The notes under the pieces were generated by a model. That model saw nothing but the letters and a program-made list of their open reading frames with translations. It ran no database searches and was not told the DNA's origin. Shown here piece after piece: positions 10,943 through 18,023 of a DNA stretch of 64,000 nt. Position 1 is the stretch's first letter. Each line of letters begins with the position of its first letter. The stretch spans positions 25,386 through 89,385 of the forward strand of contig BQJA01000002.1 in NCBI GenBank assembly GCA_021604405.1, in the 5' to 3' direction. The translations under genes and the position numbers were made by a program. The stretch comes from Nitrosomonas sp. (GTDB lineage Bacteria; Pseudomonadota; Gammaproteobacteria; Burkholderiales; Nitrosomonadaceae).

Positions 10943-11851
10943 TCAAACATGGCGATCCCAATAAGGTACGGCTCCAATCCGCTCCGCAAAAAAATCGATA
11001 AAAACCCGAATTTTTGCAGGCAAGTAGCGGCTAGGAAAGTAACTTGCATAAATATACCGGTCCACGGGGATATATTCAGACAATACTGCTTGTAATTTCC
11101 CCCTTTGCAGGTCCCTTCCAACGGTAAAGGTAGGCAGCAAAGCAACCCCCAGTCCACCGAGAACAGCCTGAGAAAGCGCATCATCATCATTAATACGCAA
11201 CGTCCCCGACACTGGAACCGAAATCTCACCTGCAGGCCCGATAAAGCGCCAATAACCTTGCTCGCCCGACAAGGTATAATCAAGACAATTATGCACAACC
11301 AAATCTTCCGGGGTTTTCGGCACCCCATGCTGCTGGAAATACTTTGGCGTCGCACACAATATACGACGTGCCGGCGCAAGCTTACGCGCCGCAAGGTTGA
11401 CGTCTGGTTCGTTAGTAACACGTATCAGCACATCATAGCCTTCTTCCACCAAATCCACATGATGGTCGGTAATCGTTAAATCAATGCGGATCTTAGGATA
11501 TTGCTCGAGAAAATCAGCAAGTGCCGGTGCAACATGAAGTGTACCAAAAGCAACTGATGCACTTACCTTTAACAGTCCTTGCGGTTCAGCTTGCAAACTG
11601 TTTACCACACGTTCAGCTTGTTCTGCCTCTTCCAGTATCCGCACCGAATATTCGGCGAACGCCGCACCCGCTTCAGTCAAGCTGAGATGTCGGGTGCTTC
11701 GGTTAAGTAGCCGCGTGCTTAAATCTTTTTCAAGCTTGGCAACGGCTTTACTTACAGCTGAGCGGGAGATATCCAAACGTCGTGCCGCTTCAGAGAAACT
11801 TCCCGCTTCTACGACACGAGCAAAAATTACAATATGATTTAAATCTTGCAT
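10943..11851 (-). CDS. LysR-type regulator, CrgA/DmlR-like
   Basis: HTH FARVVEAGSFSEAARRL, RLLNRSTR, CrgA-type PBP2 domain. Confidence 0.95.
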   Translation of the reverse strand: MQDLNHIVIFARVVEAGSFSEAARRLDISRSAVSKAVAKLEKDLSTRLLNRSTRHLSLTEAGAAFAEYSVRILEEAEQAERVVNSLQAEPQGLLKVSASVAFGTLHVAPALADFLEQYPKIRIDLTITDHHVDLVEEGYDVLIRVTNEPDVNLAARKLAPARRILCATPKYFQQHGVPKTPEDLVVHNCLDYTLSGEQGYWRFIGPAGEISVPVSGTLRINDDDALSQAVLGGLGVALLPTFTVGRDLQRGKLQAVLSEYIPVDRYIYASYFPSRYLPAKIRVFIDFFAERIGAVPYWDRHV

Positions 11852-11860
11852 AATCTTCGG

Positions 11861-11883
11861 ATTGTTTCCACAGAAGAAACAAT
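11861..11883. promoter_or_regulatory. LTTR operator ATTGTTTC-N7-GAAACAAT containing T-N11-A
   Basis: Perfect 8-bp inverted repeat 10 bp upstream of the LysR start codon. Confidence 0.7.
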
Positions 11884-12152
11884 GTTATTCGAATTTTAGT
11901 ACTTATCATTTATTTTGAAGTTGTATATTATTTCATCCCAATGAGTCGCATTAAACAATATTTACCAATTTTTATTAAGTTACGGACAGCATACAATTTA
12001 TATACCAAGGTAATTTTGTTACGCTTGACGCGATCAATTGATTAGGCATTGGATAATTCGTGCGGTTATTGTCAACCATGAAGAGCACACTAGCACAGCG
12101 CTATTTTGACTAAATTGTATTGCAAACCACTTTCTAATAGGAGCGAAAACTT

Positions 12153-12503
12153 ATGAAAACGAAGATAATGATACTTGCCGTTACCATTATGTTCACTTCA
12201 GCAAGTGCAATGGCTGACGGATATTGGCATAAGTTAAAAGTTCAAGCGGTCGCCCTGCAAGAATTAAACGATTGCAAATTAGTGGGCGAAGTCGTTGGAA
12301 GCTCAGGTTATGGCAAAACCACCAAATCAATTTGGAGAAATAAAGCGAAACACAAAGCCTTGAAACATGCGGCAGATCTGAATGCGACACATGTCGCGTG
12401 GGAAGACGATTCAACAGGATATGGTTCAGGCCGTTTTGTTTCCGGAAAGGCTTTTGTCTGTAACGATTCAAACACGATAGTTAAAGCATCCGCAGCGAAG
12501 TGA
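12153..12503 (+). CDS. Secreted DUF4156-like small protein (paralog A)
   Basis: AGGAG RBS, signal peptide, C-x-x-VG-x-V...LNATH...GKAFVC pattern; 55/83 identical to 14344-14664 over the mature region (hand count). Confidence 0.85.
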   Translation: MKTKIMILAVTIMFTSASAMADGYWHKLKVQAVALQELNDCKLVGEVVGSSGYGKTTKSIWRNKAKHKALKHAADLNATHVAWEDDSTGYGSGRFVSGKAFVCNDSNTIVKASAAK

Positions 12504-12529
12504 GTAATGTTTTGTTACTCCGAGGGGGA

Positions 12530-12556
12530 TGGGCAGAAAAACAGTTTTTCTGCCCA
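12530..12556. terminator. Hairpin between convergent genes, probable bidirectional terminator
   Basis: TGGGCAGAAAAA-CAG-TTTTTCTGCCCA, a perfect 12-bp stem. Confidence 0.7.
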
Positions 12557-12568
12557 GACACCTTTACC

Positions 12569-13795
12569 TTAAAACCGGAAAATGCCGCTGATGGACAGCA
12601 ACACTTGGCTATCTTTATTACCATCGTCAAACGCATTGCCGTTGCTATTACGATCGTATCTGACTTCAGGACGTATAGTGAAGCCAGCGATTGGCGTGTA
12701 ATTCACGCCACCCGTTACAGCCCAGAAGTTTTGTTTAAGGCCATTACCCAGCACCCTGACCCCATCATCGTCATGGAACCATTCTCCGCGAATACCAGCG
12801 CTTAAGTTATGAAGAATGTCATAAAATAGATACTGATTAACGCCGTACCATTGCGAAGAACCGGCAAAAGCCGTGCTTTCTTCAACACCTAGATCATGCT
12901 GCAGCACATAATGCAACCTGTCGGTAAAATCATGCTCCAATACTATGCTGTACATGGTGCGATTGTGGTCGTCTTTGACGCCAAGACCGTTGGTTCTTAC
13001 GTCACCTGTGATCAAGGAAGCAGTTACTGACGTTACCTCATCATCTGTGGAATAGGCGACACTACCCAGAAAATTGGCTGGCTGATCAAAGTTTGAATCC
13101 CAGCCGGTTACAACCCCGCCCGTCACCTCAATATTGTCATTAATTGCATAAGACAACAAAGCGCCCGTATGCGTAAATGGTTCACCATATTGCATAGTGT
13201 AGGCATGCGAGAAAAAGAAGTTACCCGTGGACGGAACCACTTCATAACCAATCAGGGTATAAAAATGACCAACCTTTGCAGTAATACCATTACCCCACGG
13301 CACGAAGATCTCCCCATATACCTGTGGGAAAGCTAAGTTTTTGTCGTTGGTGGTGCCCAGAACATTAGTATCGAAATTGTTTGCCGTTGTAAACCGGGCA
13401 TCAGTTCCGTACAACAGATCAGCACGAAAACCAAAACTGATCGTATCTGTCGTTCTGTCTGCTTCGCGCTCAATAAAGCCATAAACCTGATGCAGCCTGA
13501 AGTTATTTGGTTTTTCATTAAAGGTAACAGGCCCGTTGGTTCCAGCAGGATCTCTGGGATTGCCTGCAAAACCAATTTCAGTCCAGCCACCGAATTTAAC
13601 GCCCAGTGATTGCATGAAGTTTGTTTCGTTATAATTAAATCCCGTCAAGCTTTCAACCAGCCCCTTGTCGAGGGGCTCATACGTTTGATGCGTTTCATGC
13701 CCATATTCTGATTCCGCATAGGCATACGGGGAAAGTAAAAATGCGCCGCATAAAGCCAGCGACATTTTTTTCAGTTTCTTATGATGAGCTAGCAA
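12569..13795 (-). CDS. Outer-membrane beta-barrel porin, BBP2/DUF1597-like
   Basis: GHFYTLIGYEVV...FFSHAYTMQYGEPFTHTG family pattern, amphipathic strands, terminal Phe (GIFRF). Likely start is TTG at 13795 behind GGAGG; the ORF extends to 13963. Confidence 0.85.
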   Translation of the reverse strand: MLAHHKKLKKMSLALCGAFLLSPYAYAESEYGHETHQTYEPLDKGLVESLTGFNYNETNFMQSLGVKFGGWTEIGFAGNPRDPAGTNGPVTFNEKPNNFRLHQVYGFIEREADRTTDTISFGFRADLLYGTDARFTTANNFDTNVLGTTNDKNLAFPQVYGEIFVPWGNGITAKVGHFYTLIGYEVVPSTGNFFFSHAYTMQYGEPFTHTGALLSYAINDNIEVTGGVVTGWDSNFDQPANFLGSVAYSTDDEVTSVTASLITGDVRTNGLGVKDDHNRTMYSIVLEHDFTDRLHYVLQHDLGVEESTAFAGSSQWYGVNQYLFYDILHNLSAGIRGEWFHDDDGVRVLGNGLKQNFWAVTGGVNYTPIAGFTIRPEVRYDRNSNGNAFDDGNKDSQVLLSISGIFRF

Positions 13796-14050
13796 AACGT
13801 AAACCTCCATTCTATTGGTAATTTCTTGGAAACATAAACGATGTGCCAACGCACACCTCCCTAAAACTGATCTGAATGTACAAGGAAAAACCTTGCCATG
13901 CACGAGGTAAAGATTACTTAACGCTGGAACGACATGCAAACAGTTTAGTGCTTTTTGCGTCAATTGCTCAACATTTTAGACAATATTCGTCTCTTAAATG
14001 AGACAGTCATGACGTCGAAAGACTGTTTCTAACCTAACCTCACGATCCCA

Positions 14051-14072
14051 TCTTAACAAAACTGTCACAAAT
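14051..14072 (+). promoter_or_regulatory. Possible Pho-box-like (OmpR/PhoB family) 11-bp-spaced repeat
   Basis: TCTTAACAAAA-CTGTCACAAAT; the second half-site is a perfect CTGTCAC, the first is degenerate. Confidence 0.3.
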
Positions 14073-14290
14073 TTTTAGTAAGAAATTCACCGCAACCCGA
14101 ATGGTACGCGCGAGAAGCAATCGAACGGATACAGGCTCTAAAGGCTTTTTTCTGCGCAGACAGTATGAAAAAATCCACGAATCAAAATACTAACTCCGTA
14201 CGGCACAGGTGCCAGAATGAACAGGAAATACTGCAGAGGCGGCGTAAATATATTGCCAAAGCCGTTGCTTTAATTTAGCATATACATTAC

Positions 14291-14320
14291 TTTACCAAGT
14301 ACTCTACCAAGTTGACTACC
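14291..14320 (+). repeat. Three TACC-core direct repeats with 12-bp period
   Basis: TTTACCAAGTAC-TCTACCAAGTTG-ACTACC just upstream of the paralog B RBS. Confidence 0.4.
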
Positions 14321-14343
14321 TGAAAAGTAAAGGAGCAAAACTC

Positions 14344-14664
14344 ATGAAAACAAGGACCACCATAATTCTGGCCATTGTAACTTTGTTCACGTCAACAAAC
14401 ATTATTGCCGAGGGATATTGGCAGAAATTTAATATTCAAGAAGCCACGTTACAAGACGTTAAAGATTGCAGACTTGTGGGTGAAGTTGAGGGACATTCAA
14501 GCTACGGAAAAACCACCAAGCAAATCTGGAAAGAAAAAGCGAAACATGAAGCCATGAAGCACGCGGATGAGCTTAATGCAACGCATATTGTGTGGAGTGA
14601 TGACTCCACTGGATACGGATCAGGACGTTTTGTTTCCGGTAACGCCTATATCTGCAACAAGTGA
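14344..14664 (+). CDS. Secreted DUF4156-like small protein (paralog B)
   Basis: AAGGAG RBS, signal peptide, two Cys; paralog of 12153-12503. Confidence 0.85.
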   Translation: MKTRTTIILAIVTLFTSTNIIAEGYWQKFNIQEATLQDVKDCRLVGEVEGHSSYGKTTKQIWKEKAKHEAMKHADELNATHIVWSDDSTGYGSGRFVSGNAYICNK

Positions 14665-14811
14665 AATAACAAAAAAGTTTGCAGGCTGAAACTTTACGCA
14701 ATTAACAGGTCGGTTCGAATGAAACAAAAGTAACATCCATCGAAGACAAAGATTGCAGTCTGGTCGGATGCAGACAGAAAAAAGCATCAACCAGACGTAA
14801 GGTATAGATTA

Positions 14812-15924
14812 TCATTCAGAAAAAAATTCACGTGCTTTTTCCATCCACGATTTATGACGCGGACTGTGACGGGAATTATCTTTCTGACTCAACTCTTCCA
14901 GCTCCTGCAGCAATTCCTTTTGGCGCGCCGTCAATTTAACCGGCGTCTCAATTGCGACATGGCACAGGAGATCACCATTAGCATGACTGCGCACGCCTTT
15001 TATGCCCTTGCCGCGTAATCGAAAAATCTTACCCGTTTGCGTTTCCGGTGATATTTTTATTTTCGCATGGCCATCGAGCGTAGGGACTTCAATCTCTCCA
15101 CCGAGCGCAGCCGTACCGAAGCTTATCGGTATCTCACAATGCAAATCGTTACCATCGCGCTGAAATACTGAATGGCTGGCCAAATGAATCACGACATAAA
15201 GATCGCCGGGCGGGCCACCGTTAGTTCCTGCCTCACCTTCGCTAGACAAGCGGATGCGATCACCATCATCAACGCCAGCGGGTATTTTCACCGACAATGT
15301 TTTATGGTGCTTGACGCGTCCCGATCCACCGCAGGTTGCGCAAGGATTGGCGATAATTTTTCCGTTGCCGTGGCATTTTGGACAGGTTTGCTGAATTGAA
15401 AAAAAACCCTGCTGCATTCTTACCTGCCCATGGCCGTGGCATGTCGGACAAGTTTTGGGTGACGTCCCGGGTTTTGCGCCATCCCCATGACAATTTTCAC
15501 AGGTTTCCATCGCCGGTATACGGATTTTAGTCTCGGTTCCCCGCGCGGCTTGCTCTAACGAAATTTCCAGGTTATAACGTAAATCAGCGCCACGATGAAT
15601 ATTGGATCGTCCGGCGCGGCCGCCGAAGATATCACCAAAAATATCGCTAAAAGCATCGCCAAACCCATGATGCGAACCCCCTGCACCACCGCCACTCGCC
15701 TCGACACCTGCGTGACCATACTGGTCATACGCTGCCCGCTTATTTGGATCAGCCAGAACTTCGTAAGCTTCTTTGGCCTCCTTGAACAACTCTTCGGATT
15801 TGGTATTCCCTGAATTCCGATCCGGATGATGTTTCATCGCCAGTCTTCGGTAGGCCTTTTTTATTTCACTTTCATCGGCCCCACGATCCACACCGAGAAC
15901 CTCATAATAATCACGTTTACTCAT
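14812..15924 (-). CDS. dnaJ: Chaperone DnaJ
   Basis: J-domain HPD, G/F region, four CxxCxGxG repeats. Confidence 0.98.
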
Positions 15925-16070: not shown

Positions 16071-18023
16071 TTATTTTTTGTTTTTTACTTCCTCAAATTC
16101 TGCATCAACCACCTCACCTTCGACTGTTTTTTCGCCTTTATCGGATGAAGACGAGGACGAAGATGACTCAGCACCCGCTGACTCATGCTGGGCTTGTTGT
16201 GCCTGATCCTGACTATACATTTTCTCAGCAAGCTTATGCGAAGCCTCGGTTAGCGCCTGAGTTTTTGCCTCAATGGTTTCTTTGTCATTGGACTTGATGG
16301 CTTCTTCAGCATCTTTCAAAGCAGTCTCAATCTTGGACTTTTCATCACCTTCCAATTTGTCGCCATGCTCCGCTAATGATTTCTTCACCGAATGGATCAT
16401 GGCATCGCACTGATTCCGGCTGGAAACCAACTCAAATGCTTTATGATCTTCCTCGGCATGCGCTTCCGCATCTTTAACCATACGTTCGACTTCATCATCT
16501 GACAAGCCAGAACTTGCCTGGATTTTTATTTTATTTTCTTTACCGGTCGCTTTGTCTTTAGCAGATACATGCAGAATGCCATTCGCGTCAATATCAAAAA
16601 TTACTTCAATTTGTGGCATACCGCGAGGCGCTGGCGGAATATCTGTCAAGTTGAACTGCCCCAGACTTTTATTGCCAGAAGCCATTTCGCGCTCACCCTG
16701 CAACACATGAATTGTGACCGCAGACTGATTATCATCAGCGGTTGAAAACACCTGGTTCGCTTTGGTTGGGATAGTCGTATTTTTCTGAATCAACTTTGTC
16801 ATCACGCCGCCCAAGGTTTCAATACCCAGCGACAGTGGTGTCACATCCAACAGCAACACATCCTTTACGTCACCCTGCAACACACCGCCTTGAATCGCTG
16901 CACCAACCGCGACCGCCTCATCCGGATTCACATCCTTGCGCGGCTCCTTATTAAAAATTTCTTTAACTTTCTCTTGCGCCATAGGCATGCGTGTCTGTCC
17001 ACCCACCAGAATGACATCATCAATATCTGATGCAGAAAGACCCGCATCTTTAAGCGCAACACGACAAGGCTCAACGGTACGTTCAATCAGGTCTTCAACC
17101 AAGCTTTCCAATTTGGCACGGGTAATTTTTACTGCCAAATGTTTTGGACCCGACGCATCGGCCGTAACATAAGGCAGGTTAACTTCAGTCTGCTGGCTGG
17201 ATGAAAGCTCGATTTTGGCTTTTTCCGCTGCATCCTTCAACCGCTGTAATGCAAGCATATCGCTTTTCAAGTCGATGCCATTGTCTTTCTTGAATTCATC
17301 AACGAGATATTCGATAACGCGAAGATCAAAATCCTCACCACCAAGAAATGTATCGCCATTGGTTGCCAAAACTTCAAATTGATGCTCACCTTCCACTTCA
17401 GCAATTTCAATAATCGAAATATCAAAAGTGCCGCCGCCAAGATCGTAAACCGCAATTTTTCGATCCCCTTGTTTTTTATCCATGCCAAAAGCCAATGCGG
17501 CGGCCGTAGGCTCATTAATAATGCGCTTAACTTCCAACCCGGCGATCCGCCCAGCATCTTTTGTCGCTTGACGCTGCGAATCATTAAAATAGGCTGGTAC
17601 AGTAATAACCGCTTCCTCCACAGACTCACCAAGATAATCCTCTGCGGTTTTTTTCATCTTCTTCAGTACTTGCGCTGAAACTTCAGGCGGCGCAATTTTT
17701 TTGCCTCGCACCTCAACCCACGCATCGTTATTGTCCGCTCTTATAATGCTATATGGCACCATTTTAATATCTTTTTGCACCACATCTTCGTCAAAGCGCC
17801 GCCCAATCAGACGTTTTATCGCAAACAACGTATTTTTCGGGTTCGTTACTGCCTGACGTTTCGCAGCAGCACCCACCAAAATCTCATTATCTTCTGTATA
17901 CGCAACAATGGAGGGCGTCGTACGCGTACCCTCAGCATTTTCAATGACTTTGGGTTTGCCATTCTCTATAACGGAAACACATGAGTTGGTGGTACCTAGA
18001 TCAATACCAATAATTTTTGCCAT
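16071..18023 (-). CDS. dnaK: Chaperone DnaK (Hsp70)
   Basis: [33 protein letters not shown]. Confidence 0.99.

Follow-up and report, generated by a model that had tools for sequence, protein, structure and literature searches.

A LysR-Linked Gene for a Small Exported Protein of the YjeI/DUF4156 Superfamily and Its Local Duplicate beside a BBP2 Porin Gene in Nitrosomonas

RESULTS

Two genes for small exported proteins, here called paralogs A and B, enclose a porin gene in the Nitrosomonas sp. DNA that we analyzed (a stretch of 64 kb, referred to below as the window). Paralog A (positions 12153 to 12503, plus strand, 116 aa) was assigned from its open reading frame, its paralogy, and a profile match; paralog B (14344 to 14664, plus strand, 106 aa) was assigned from its open reading frame and paralogy. 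PF07642 and the translation identify the gene between them (12569 to 13795, minus strand) as encoding a BBP2/OmpL-like beta-barrel porin of approximately 408 aa. This layout of A(+), porin(-), and B(+) is present as described in an earlier reading of the same sequence (the original prediction), and so is a LysR gene divergent from A (10943 to 11851, minus strand, 302 aa), from which A is separated by 301 bp. Beyond B lie dnaJ (14812 to 15924, minus strand), recognized from its translation and from Pfam marks on the neighboring genes of a second Nitrosomonas lineage, L054, and then dnaK (16071 to 18023), both of which are context genes outside the unit. The genome contains exactly two copies of the A/B family and one BBP2 porin. 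An Rfam scan of positions 11700 to 14900 returned nothing near threshold.

A and B are identical at 65 of 105 positions (62%; BLASTP E value, 3e-53) and, by our recount, at 55 of 84 positions of the mature region, where 55 of 83 had been given; "near-identical," as they had been called, overstates an identity of 62 to 66%. The segment DDSTGYGSGRFVSG, the two cysteines, and the similar ribosome-binding-site (RBS) strings ascribed to both genes are all in the sequence. At the DNA level the two share a repeat of about 71% identity that is confined to positions 12146 to 12467 and 14337 to 14661, so that only the RBS and coding sequence were duplicated. Both N termini are of the Sec type, with signal peptides of about residues 1 to 21 in A and 1 to 22 in B; the likely cleavage sites, judged by eye, fall between TSASAMA and DGYW in A and between TSTNIIA and EGYW in B. 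The cysteines are Cys41 and Cys103 in A and Cys42 and Cys104 in B. Neither protein has a lipobox (L-x-[GA]-C), there being no cysteine in either signal region, as had been noted. From the signal peptide, the absence of a lipobox, and the conserved cysteine pair, both products are probably soluble and exported, in agreement with the original prediction.

Both genes are under purifying selection, with dN/dS values relative to L054 of 0.18 (A) and 0.20 (B). In the family tree B is nested inside the A-type clade. B occupies the same position in L054 as in the window, and the A-porin-B order is kept in these two lineages, which are about 0.6 to 0.9 apart in dS, a pattern that would fit selection for this gene order.

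Judged from profiles and motifs, A and B form part of a divergent Nitrosomonas clade, one without a lipobox, within the uncharacterized YjeI/DUF4156 lipoprotein superfamily. Taken as single sequences, they support the earlier label "DUF4156-like" weakly, as B stays below the PF13698 gathering threshold of 28.9 bits (14.6 bits; E value, 0.043) and A gives no match; 15 of 20 Nitrosomonas members have subthreshold matches (best E value, 7.5e-4). At the profile level the label holds, as a 46-sequence profile aligned by hhalign with Escherichia coli YjeI at 96.2% probability (E value, 2.5e-9) over 97 columns that include both cysteines. An HMM search started from the family gathered 708 representatives of 50%-identity clusters at an E value of ≤1e-3, and PF13698 was matched by 34 of 46 sampled relatives (best E value, 2.6e-8). 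The sampled distant relatives are mostly lipoproteins, with GCAT or ACVT at the end of the signal. In the 46-sequence alignment C42 is invariant and C104 nearly so, and the Nitrosomonas set has no exception at either position. A and B have in common with the YjeI/DUF4156 (PF13698) lipoproteins, such as E. coli YjeI (b4144), a size of about 100 to 120 aa, an identical order of secondary-structure elements, cysteines at equivalent positions (before strand 2 and in a C-terminal AY.C), and the motif A..LGA(T/N)..V. The differences are that the lipobox L-x-[GA]-C is found in DUF4156 relatives and not in A and B, that GYW at the mature N terminus and STGYGSGRFVSG are specific to the A/B clade, and that this clade is paired with a LysR regulator whereas nine distant DUF4156 loci are not. 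A literature search for DUF4156/YjeI, and for BBP2 in Nitrosomonas, yielded no functional study.

The AlphaFold2 model of B has a beta-alpha-beta-beta core with pLDDT values of 85 to 95. Its best fold match in the PDB is RcsF (2y1b), a weak one in Foldseek (E value, 7.4e-3; TM scores, 0.50 and 0.59), and a comparison of profiles with RcsF by hhalign reached a nonsignificant 4% probability; the likeness to RcsF is limited to this weak fold match, there being no significant similarity in sequence or profile. RcsF, the outer membrane sensor lipoprotein of the Rcs envelope stress system, contains two disulfides and is threaded through the OmpA, OmpC, and OmpF barrels, acting through outer membrane barrels. 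It resembles A and B in being a small disulfide-containing envelope protein, if A and B do form the disulfide that their cysteines suggest; A and B differ from it in the lack of a lipobox, in having a single cysteine pair, and in the absence of an Rcs phosphorelay context. Weak Foldseek matches were also obtained to proteins of the DUF1471 type (4evu, 2jna, 2m2j, 2ma8 [SrfN], and 2ma4 [YahO]; TM scores of 0.4 to 0.68 on the target). The stress-induced DUF1471/YdgH-BhsA-McbA proteins are small, Sec-exported, and soluble in the periplasm, as A and B are predicted to be. They generally lack a cysteine pair, and scans of 20 and of 46 members of the A/B family gave no Pfam match to DUF1471. Neither a sequence search of the PDB with the family profile nor a search of a viral structure library gave a meaningful match.

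The regulator carries HTH_1 (PF00126; E value, 1.3e-21) and LysR_substrate (PF03466; E value, 1.9e-40) domains, which together with its divergence from A mark it as LysR type; it reaches no NCBIfam equivalog cutoff, scoring 227 bits against the 470 needed for YafC. Its ortholog is 79 to 90% identical across Nitrosomonas (90% for the copy in L055), and where family genes adjoin the ortholog in the genomes G012, G017, G023, and G024, identity is 79 to 81%, compared with 30 to 40% for the next-best LysR protein there. Ten nucleotides upstream of the LysR start codon, an interrupted dyad, ATTGTTTC-N7-GAAACAAT (positions 11861 to 11883), can be read directly in the sequence. Each of the 18 LysR upstream regions compared has an equivalent dyad at this position, and in genomes that lack A it reads ATTGTCAACC-N5-GAAACAAT. 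This dyad is probably the auto-operator of the LysR gene.

A family-specific box, ATTGTCAACCATGAAGAGCAC (12068 to 12088, plus strand), lies 85 nt before the start codon of A. Of 17 family genes, 15 are preceded by a box of the general form A[CT]TGTnnA[CT]-N5-AGnnC, among them 4 copies that do not adjoin LysR. The 5' half of the box, ATTGTCAAC, matches exactly the half-site of the dyad next to LysR in genomes lacking A. When a matrix built from the other genomes only was run over both strands of the window, the site upstream of A ranked first and nothing was found near B or the porin; upstream of B, the box is absent in both lineages. The box is probably either a site for activation by LysR or part of a promoter. 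In copy 1 of G012 and G069, about 6 nt fewer separate the box from the TTATT that follows it. A genome-wide regulon search with a degenerate pattern gave three matches, about the number that we estimated by hand from its degeneracy, and of the two other matches the one inspected lies inside a long open reading frame. The only other match in the window at up to five mismatches is a 21-nt look-alike with five mismatches upstream of the porin (13965 to 13985). Considered as a site shared with A, it was rejected as chance, being conserved in none of 17 other porin upstream regions, that of L054 included.

B is preceded by a predicted sigma70-like promoter, TTGCCA-N17-TAGCAT (14253 to 14281, plus strand), that came from a consensus scan and has 9 of 12 consensus matches. 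The block ATATATTGCCAA...TTTAG[CT]A upstream of B is kept in L054 and its flanks are not, and we infer that positions 14253 to 14281 act as the promoter of B. The separate regulation that had been proposed for the two copies is borne out to the extent that their upstream regions differ, A having the family-specific box beside LysR and B a separate sigma70-like promoter that is conserved in the second lineage.

The porin matches PF07642 (BBP2) with an E value of 8.7e-90 and 301.8 bits, against a cutoff of 26.2 bits, over profile positions 2 to 339 of 339, and its translation has a signal with a break between LLSPYAYA and E and a C terminus of GIFRF, so the assignment to the BBP2 type stands. 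Its start is a TTG preceded by GGAGG (13795), the layout being also given as 12569 to 13768. Between the window and L054, the porin leader and promoter region (13796 to 14015, minus strand) is much better conserved than the porin-distal part, which is poorly conserved and contains indels; the sequence scan lists a small hairpin at 13988 to 14005 in this leader. A sigma54 reading of TGGCAC-N5-TTAT in the leader was rejected, since L054 does not keep the GG. No conserved block is common to the promoter regions of the porin and B. The hairpin that had been predicted (12523 to 12563) is present where the 3' ends of A and the porin gene converge, its 20-nt arms being 85% complementary around a perfect 12-bp core (dG, -30.3 kcal/mol; z, -5.6 relative to shuffled sequences). 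It has no U-tract on either strand and was not called by a simple terminator scan; it may serve as a bidirectional terminator or transcript stabilizer.

Context could be read for 22 family genes, of which 12 have the orthologous LysR gene as a neighbor and 7 the porin. The LysR-linked genes occur in two settings on the chromosome, miaA...dnaJ and lpdA/proA...fur. LysR-A-porin is found again in L054, L055/56, G012, and G069; seven lineages have LysR-A without a porin, as in the N. communis group, where a family gene lies beside the orthologous LysR. Eight family copies have neither neighbor, and extra copies in other lineages as well as B-type relatives are found in unrelated contexts. All seven porin-adjacent genes belong to one Nitrosomonas sub-clade in which LysR and the porin are neighbors even where A is missing: in at least seven species LysR adjoins the orthologous porin across a noncoding gap. 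A six-frame HMM search of the gaps in seven such A-less genomes found no significant remnant of A; two of the seven contain a possible fossil signal peptide open reading frame. Orthologous porins were found in all 61 Nitrosomonas genomes searched and the family in 8 of them, and no BBP2 porin lies within 5 kb of any of the nine distant DUF4156 loci. One genome, G008, has the LysR ortholog and lacks the family.

DISCUSSION

Our results lead us to consider it probable that this locus comprises a LysR-controlled gene for a small periplasmic protein, A, and a rewired local duplicate, B, and that the porin is not their dedicated partner. Since the conserved partner of the family is LysR and not the porin, the locus would be an ordinary regulator-target pair with a local duplicate. 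A would be the divergently transcribed target of this strongly conserved regulator, which may bind ATTGT-containing boxes at two places, at its own start for autocontrol and some 85 nt before A, and which would switch A on in response to a signal. The A protein would be exported via Sec and cleaved by signal peptidase I, its conserved cysteine pair would probably form a disulfide, its fold would be beta-alpha-beta-beta, and with the lipid anchor having apparently been lost in the Nitrosomonas clade, it would probably be free in the periplasm. B would have arisen when only the RBS and coding sequence were duplicated locally, after the G012/G069 lineage split off and before the L054 lineage did; having lost the family box and running from its own sigma70-like promoter, it may now be a rewired, perhaps constitutive, copy. 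The porin would be a single BBP2 general porin whose position reflects an older LysR-porin neighborhood.

Classical divergent LysR-target pairs offer a close comparison, as they are likewise divergently transcribed, here across about 300 bp, and likewise have a dyad at the start of the regulator gene and a related second box upstream of the target. The present case differs from them in that the box also precedes unlinked paralogs and in that the regulator persists in genomes without the target, where, as in G008, it must either act on other targets or be confined to autoregulation. The last two features are also what one would expect if the box were a promoter for an alternative sigma factor of the ECF/sigmaE type and not a LysR site, the family being part of an envelope stress regulon and its adjacency to LysR historical. 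ECF promoters follow a GAAC-N16-17 pattern, which is resembled by the AGAAC of the box and the conserved TTAT(T)/TCTAA-like element about 16 to 19 nt further on. We nevertheless think this reading rather unlikely, given that the 5' half of the box equals the LysR-proximal half-site of A-less genomes, that the spacing to the -10-like element is 1 to 3 nt longer than in classical sigmaE promoters and is variable (as in the first copy of G012), that there is no sigma or anti-sigma gene nearby, and that chance would hardly place family genes beside one and the same LysR ortholog in two different settings on the chromosome.

The original prediction was that A and B are periplasmic partners, plugs, or ligand delivery proteins of the BBP2 porin, the three genes forming a module for uptake or sensing in which the two copies are regulated differently. 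We judge this unlikely, even though A-porin-B is kept in L054, LysR-A-porin is found in five lineages, A and the porin converge on a single strong hairpin, B lies within the upstream intergenic region of the porin, the genome pairs its single BBP2 porin with exactly two family copies, and RcsF, which works through barrels, is the top (though weak) fold match of the B model. The idea is weakened by the restriction of porin linkage to one sub-clade whose LysR and porin genes are adjacent with or without A, so that the co-occurrence expected of dedicated partners was not seen among the 22 family genes or the nine distant loci; by the lineages and copies that have no porin beside them; by the presence of the porin in every genome searched and of the family in so few; by promoter regions of the porin and B that have no block in common and a porin-upstream look-alike that other genomes do not conserve; and by the nonsignificant RcsF profile comparison. 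Shared ancestry of the neighborhood is the best account of the link to the porin, and on present evidence the locus reveals no new uptake or sensing machine. A bolder version, in which the whole YjeI/DUF4156 superfamily is RcsF-like and acts on barrels while the anchorless A and B dock onto the genome's single BBP2 porin or thread themselves into it, strikes us as quite improbable; if true, it would place a LysR-tuned gate or sensor on the main diffusion channel of the cell. That B, or both copies, are a functionless and decaying by-product of local duplication is to be expected least. The patchy occurrence of the family, a frameshifted or truncated relative (P0010 in L057), and the possible fossil signal peptides where A is missing would fit such decay, but neither open reading frame is disrupted, each retaining an RBS, a signal peptide, and the two cysteines, the dN/dS values between lineages are low, and the promoter block of B is conserved.

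Under the preferred reading of a LysR-controlled protein and its rewired duplicate, our best guess for A and B is a role in stress or sensing at the envelope, as suggested by small periplasmic proteins that resemble them in fold (DUF1471/BhsA type and RcsF). The locus gives a first contextual handle on DUF4156/YjeI, a widespread, uncharacterized envelope protein family that includes an E. coli gene, and the ties of the anchorless Nitrosomonas clade to one specific LysR regulator and a recognizable upstream box make its regulation experimentally approachable. B may furthermore serve as an example of a local duplicate escaping the parental regulon, and the family tree contains three independent lineage-specific duplications.

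Organization of the locus

ORF listing and direct reading confirmed the predicted order of A (12153-12503, plus strand, 116 aa), the porin (12569-13768 or further, minus strand) and B (14344-14664, plus strand, 106 aa), which is flanked by a LysR-type regulator gene (10943-11851, minus strand) on one side and by dnaJ (14812-15924, minus strand) and dnaK (16071-18023, minus strand) on the other. While the original prediction was accurate in what it observed, its interpretation is supported only in part, and its sole overstatement of observation was to call A and B near-identical: they are paralogs (E 3e-53), but share 65 of 105 residues (62%) overall and 55 of 84 in their mature parts. The underlying DNA repeat (12146-12467 and 14337-14661, ~71% identity) spans the ribosome binding site and coding sequence only, and the upstream regions are unrelated at the DNA level. 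A and B are the only members of the small family in the genome (3.74 Mb in 199 contigs), which has a single BBP2 gene. Purifying selection acts on A and on B, with dN/dS values of 0.18 and 0.20, respectively, against L054, a second lineage with the same A-porin-B order.

The 12-bp hairpin described between the convergent ends of A and the porin is present at 12523-12563 (12-pair stem, -30.3 kcal/mol, z -5.6). Just ahead of it, one base past the A stop codon, begins a further hairpin, this one small (GAGUAAC-N5-GUUACUC, 12501-12521).

The porin is a full-length BBP2 protein (PF07642, E 8.7e-90), most likely initiated at a TTG (13795) that follows a GGAGG by seven bases; translated from there, its N terminus reads MLAHHKKLKKMSLALCGAFLLSPYAYA followed by ESE and its C terminus ends in GIFRF. 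The leader of about 220 nt (13796-14015) is well conserved in L054 and contains a small hairpin at 13988-14005, with neither an Rfam match nor a recognizable sigma70 promoter. B and the porin had been thought to share a divergent promoter region; they do physically share the intergenic DNA, but no common operator is visible, and poorly conserved DNA with indels separates the leader from the B promoter.

A and B belong to an anchor-less branch of the YjeI/DUF4156 superfamily

As single sequences, A has no DUF4156 match in Pfam and B only a subthreshold one (E 0.043, 14.6 bits against a cutoff of 28.9), as do 15 of the 20 Nitrosomonas members. A profile HMM built from these 20 Nitrosomonas-type sequences and searched against 1.84 billion representatives recovered 708 proteins at E<=1e-3, of which 185 reached E<=1e-10, and a sample of 44 consisted mostly of ~100-aa lipoproteins with an L-x-[GA]-C lipobox. 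PF13698 was matched by 34 of 46 aligned sequences (best E 2.6e-8), and the 46-sequence profile matched E. coli YjeI, annotated as a "DUF4156 domain-containing lipoprotein," over the whole domain including both cysteines (96.2% probability, E 2.5e-9). The predicted DUF4156 likeness thus holds at the profile level, placing A and B in a divergent, anchor-less clade of this superfamily. Our literature search found no published functional studies on DUF4156 or YjeI.

An AlphaFold2 model of B from a 20-sequence alignment has a beta-alpha-beta-beta core (pLDDT 85 to 95 in the core, 74.9 overall). Foldseek against the PDB returned weak matches only: RcsF (E 7e-3, TM 0.5 to 0.6), YbjQ-like proteins, and the DUF1471 proteins YdgH, STM0082, SrfN, and YahO. 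Since a profile comparison of RcsF with the family was not significant (4% probability), the RcsF likeness is fold-level at most.

A canonical DUF4156-type lipoprotein (lipobox LSGCSA) is encoded at L075:5001-5360 (minus strand) in G008, a genome without the anchor-less clade. Weak family matches in five further genomes (G005, G054, G066, G067, and G075) contain in-frame stops within the six-frame match.

The LysR gene is the conserved partner of the family

The genomes searched were drawn samples, and absences apply to those searched. The 22 clear family genes with readable neighbors fall into four groups. The order LysR-A-porin occurs in the window genome, L054, L055/56, G012, and G069, and B lies between the porin and dnaJ in the window genome and L054 only. 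Seven N. communis-group lineages (including Nm132, Nm33, Nm34, and an N. communis MAG) have the LysR gene divergent from the family gene between lpdA/proA and fur, without a porin. The remaining eight genes adjoin neither: the second copies of G012 and G069 (near guaA/rimK), two extra G049 copies, P0006, P0008, the broken P0010, and one gammaproteobacterial relative. Judged by sequence identity, the adjoining LysR is a true ortholog in both chromosomal settings (79 to 81%, against 30 to 40% for the runner-up LysR of the respective genome). The interval from the family gene to fur in the N. communis-group loci encodes a conserved exported protein of ~165 to 190 aa that has no Pfam match (L016:6460-6963, minus strand, and equivalents in L017 to L022).

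The small family was found in 8 of the 61 genomes searched, compared with BBP2 homologs in all 61. At least seven species (G003, G008, G050, G052, G055, G058, and G071) have the orthologous LysR (76 to 83% identical) directly beside the orthologous porin (63 to 65%), and their 520- to 770-bp gaps contain no family gene or detectable remnant of one. The superfamily is sparse outside Nitrosomonas (present in 4 of 301 genomes at the order level and in 12 of 401 at the phylum level); none of nine distant loci has a BBP2 porin or LysR relative within 5 kb, and three are in a YjeI-like position, beside groL or pgi and epmB/efp. Linkage to BBP2 porins is therefore limited to one clade, in which LysR and the porin adjoin regardless, and this comparison identifies the LysR gene as the conserved partner.

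Regulatory signals

An interrupted dyad, ATTGTTTC-N7-GAAACAAT (11861-11883), lies ten bases ahead of the LysR start and is kept in every one of the 18 such regions compared, taking the form ATTGTCAACC-N5-GAAACAAT in genomes that lack A. Of 17 family genes, 15, including four copies far from LysR, have a family-specific box, A[CT]TGTnnA[CT]-N5-AGnnC, at 60 to 110 nt upstream; the box is usually followed ~16 nt downstream by TTAT(T), and its 5' half matches the putative LysR operator half-site. With a weight matrix from other genomes only, the site upstream of A (12068-12088) ranked first among all positions on the two strands of the 64-kb window, and no site was found close to either B or the porin. 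In neither lineage does B have the box; it has its own conserved TTGCCA-N17-TAG[CT]AT block (14253-14281), so that, as predicted, the two copies appear to be under different upstream control. An A-box look-alike upstream of the porin was rejected as a shared site, as it is not conserved elsewhere.

A putative LysR regulon and its duplicated target

The locus is best read as a LysR-type regulator gene with A as its divergently transcribed target, where LysR would bind the boxes and switch A on in response to a signal. The box could alternatively be an ECF-type promoter, which would be compatible with regulation of A by LysR. A would encode a small protein that is exported and probably stays soluble in the periplasm, has one likely disulfide, and derives from a lipoprotein family through loss of the anchor; by eye, cleavage would fall between AMA and D in A and between IIA and E in B. 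The second copy, B, is an ordinary local duplicate that would have left the regulon and gained a housekeeping-type promoter.

The main rival is the original prediction, which made A and B soluble partners of the porin in an undescribed uptake or sensing module. A weak fold resemblance to RcsF and the retention of the order A-porin-B by two lineages speak for such a partnership, but the comparative data point against a dedicated module, and we consider it improbable. What is new at the locus is an anchor-less variant of the uncharacterized DUF4156/YjeI family that is linked with one specific LysR regulator. Both proteins may have a role in the envelope, and domain fusions in other taxa fit an envelope-located binding or targeting module. 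In P0024, P0036, P0047, P0089, and P0137, the DUF4156-like domain sits at the N terminus and is joined to trypsin-like peptidases, a caspase-family (C14) peptidase, or CsgG/DUF3280-like domains, and P0022 and P0048 carry tandem copies.

History of the copies

In a maximum-likelihood tree, A-type and B-type sequences form one clade (support 98/100), with the B-type nested as a subclade (100/97) that includes P0006, P0008, and P0010 from outside the porin/dnaJ context. Independent duplications occurred in the G012/G069 and G049 lineages; each duplication leaves one copy beside LysR and places the other at a different site, which lies across the porin only in the lineage of the window genome. The B-type P0010 (L057:1930-2200) is split into two frames (residues 1 to 70 and 87 to 105) and is flanked by an AMP-binding/PP-binding gene and an mscK-like gene, and the intact B-type P0006 (L092) adjoins the same kind of AMP-binding gene.

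Two A-less LysR-porin gaps contain related hydrophobic ORFs of 40 to 47 aa after the box (G055, L028:3013-3156, minus strand; G050, L034:1171-1293, plus strand), whose products align with the G012 family protein over its signal peptide. These ORFs may be relics of A or may encode a small membrane peptide, and they give a thin hint that A was lost in these lineages as opposed to gained in that of the window.
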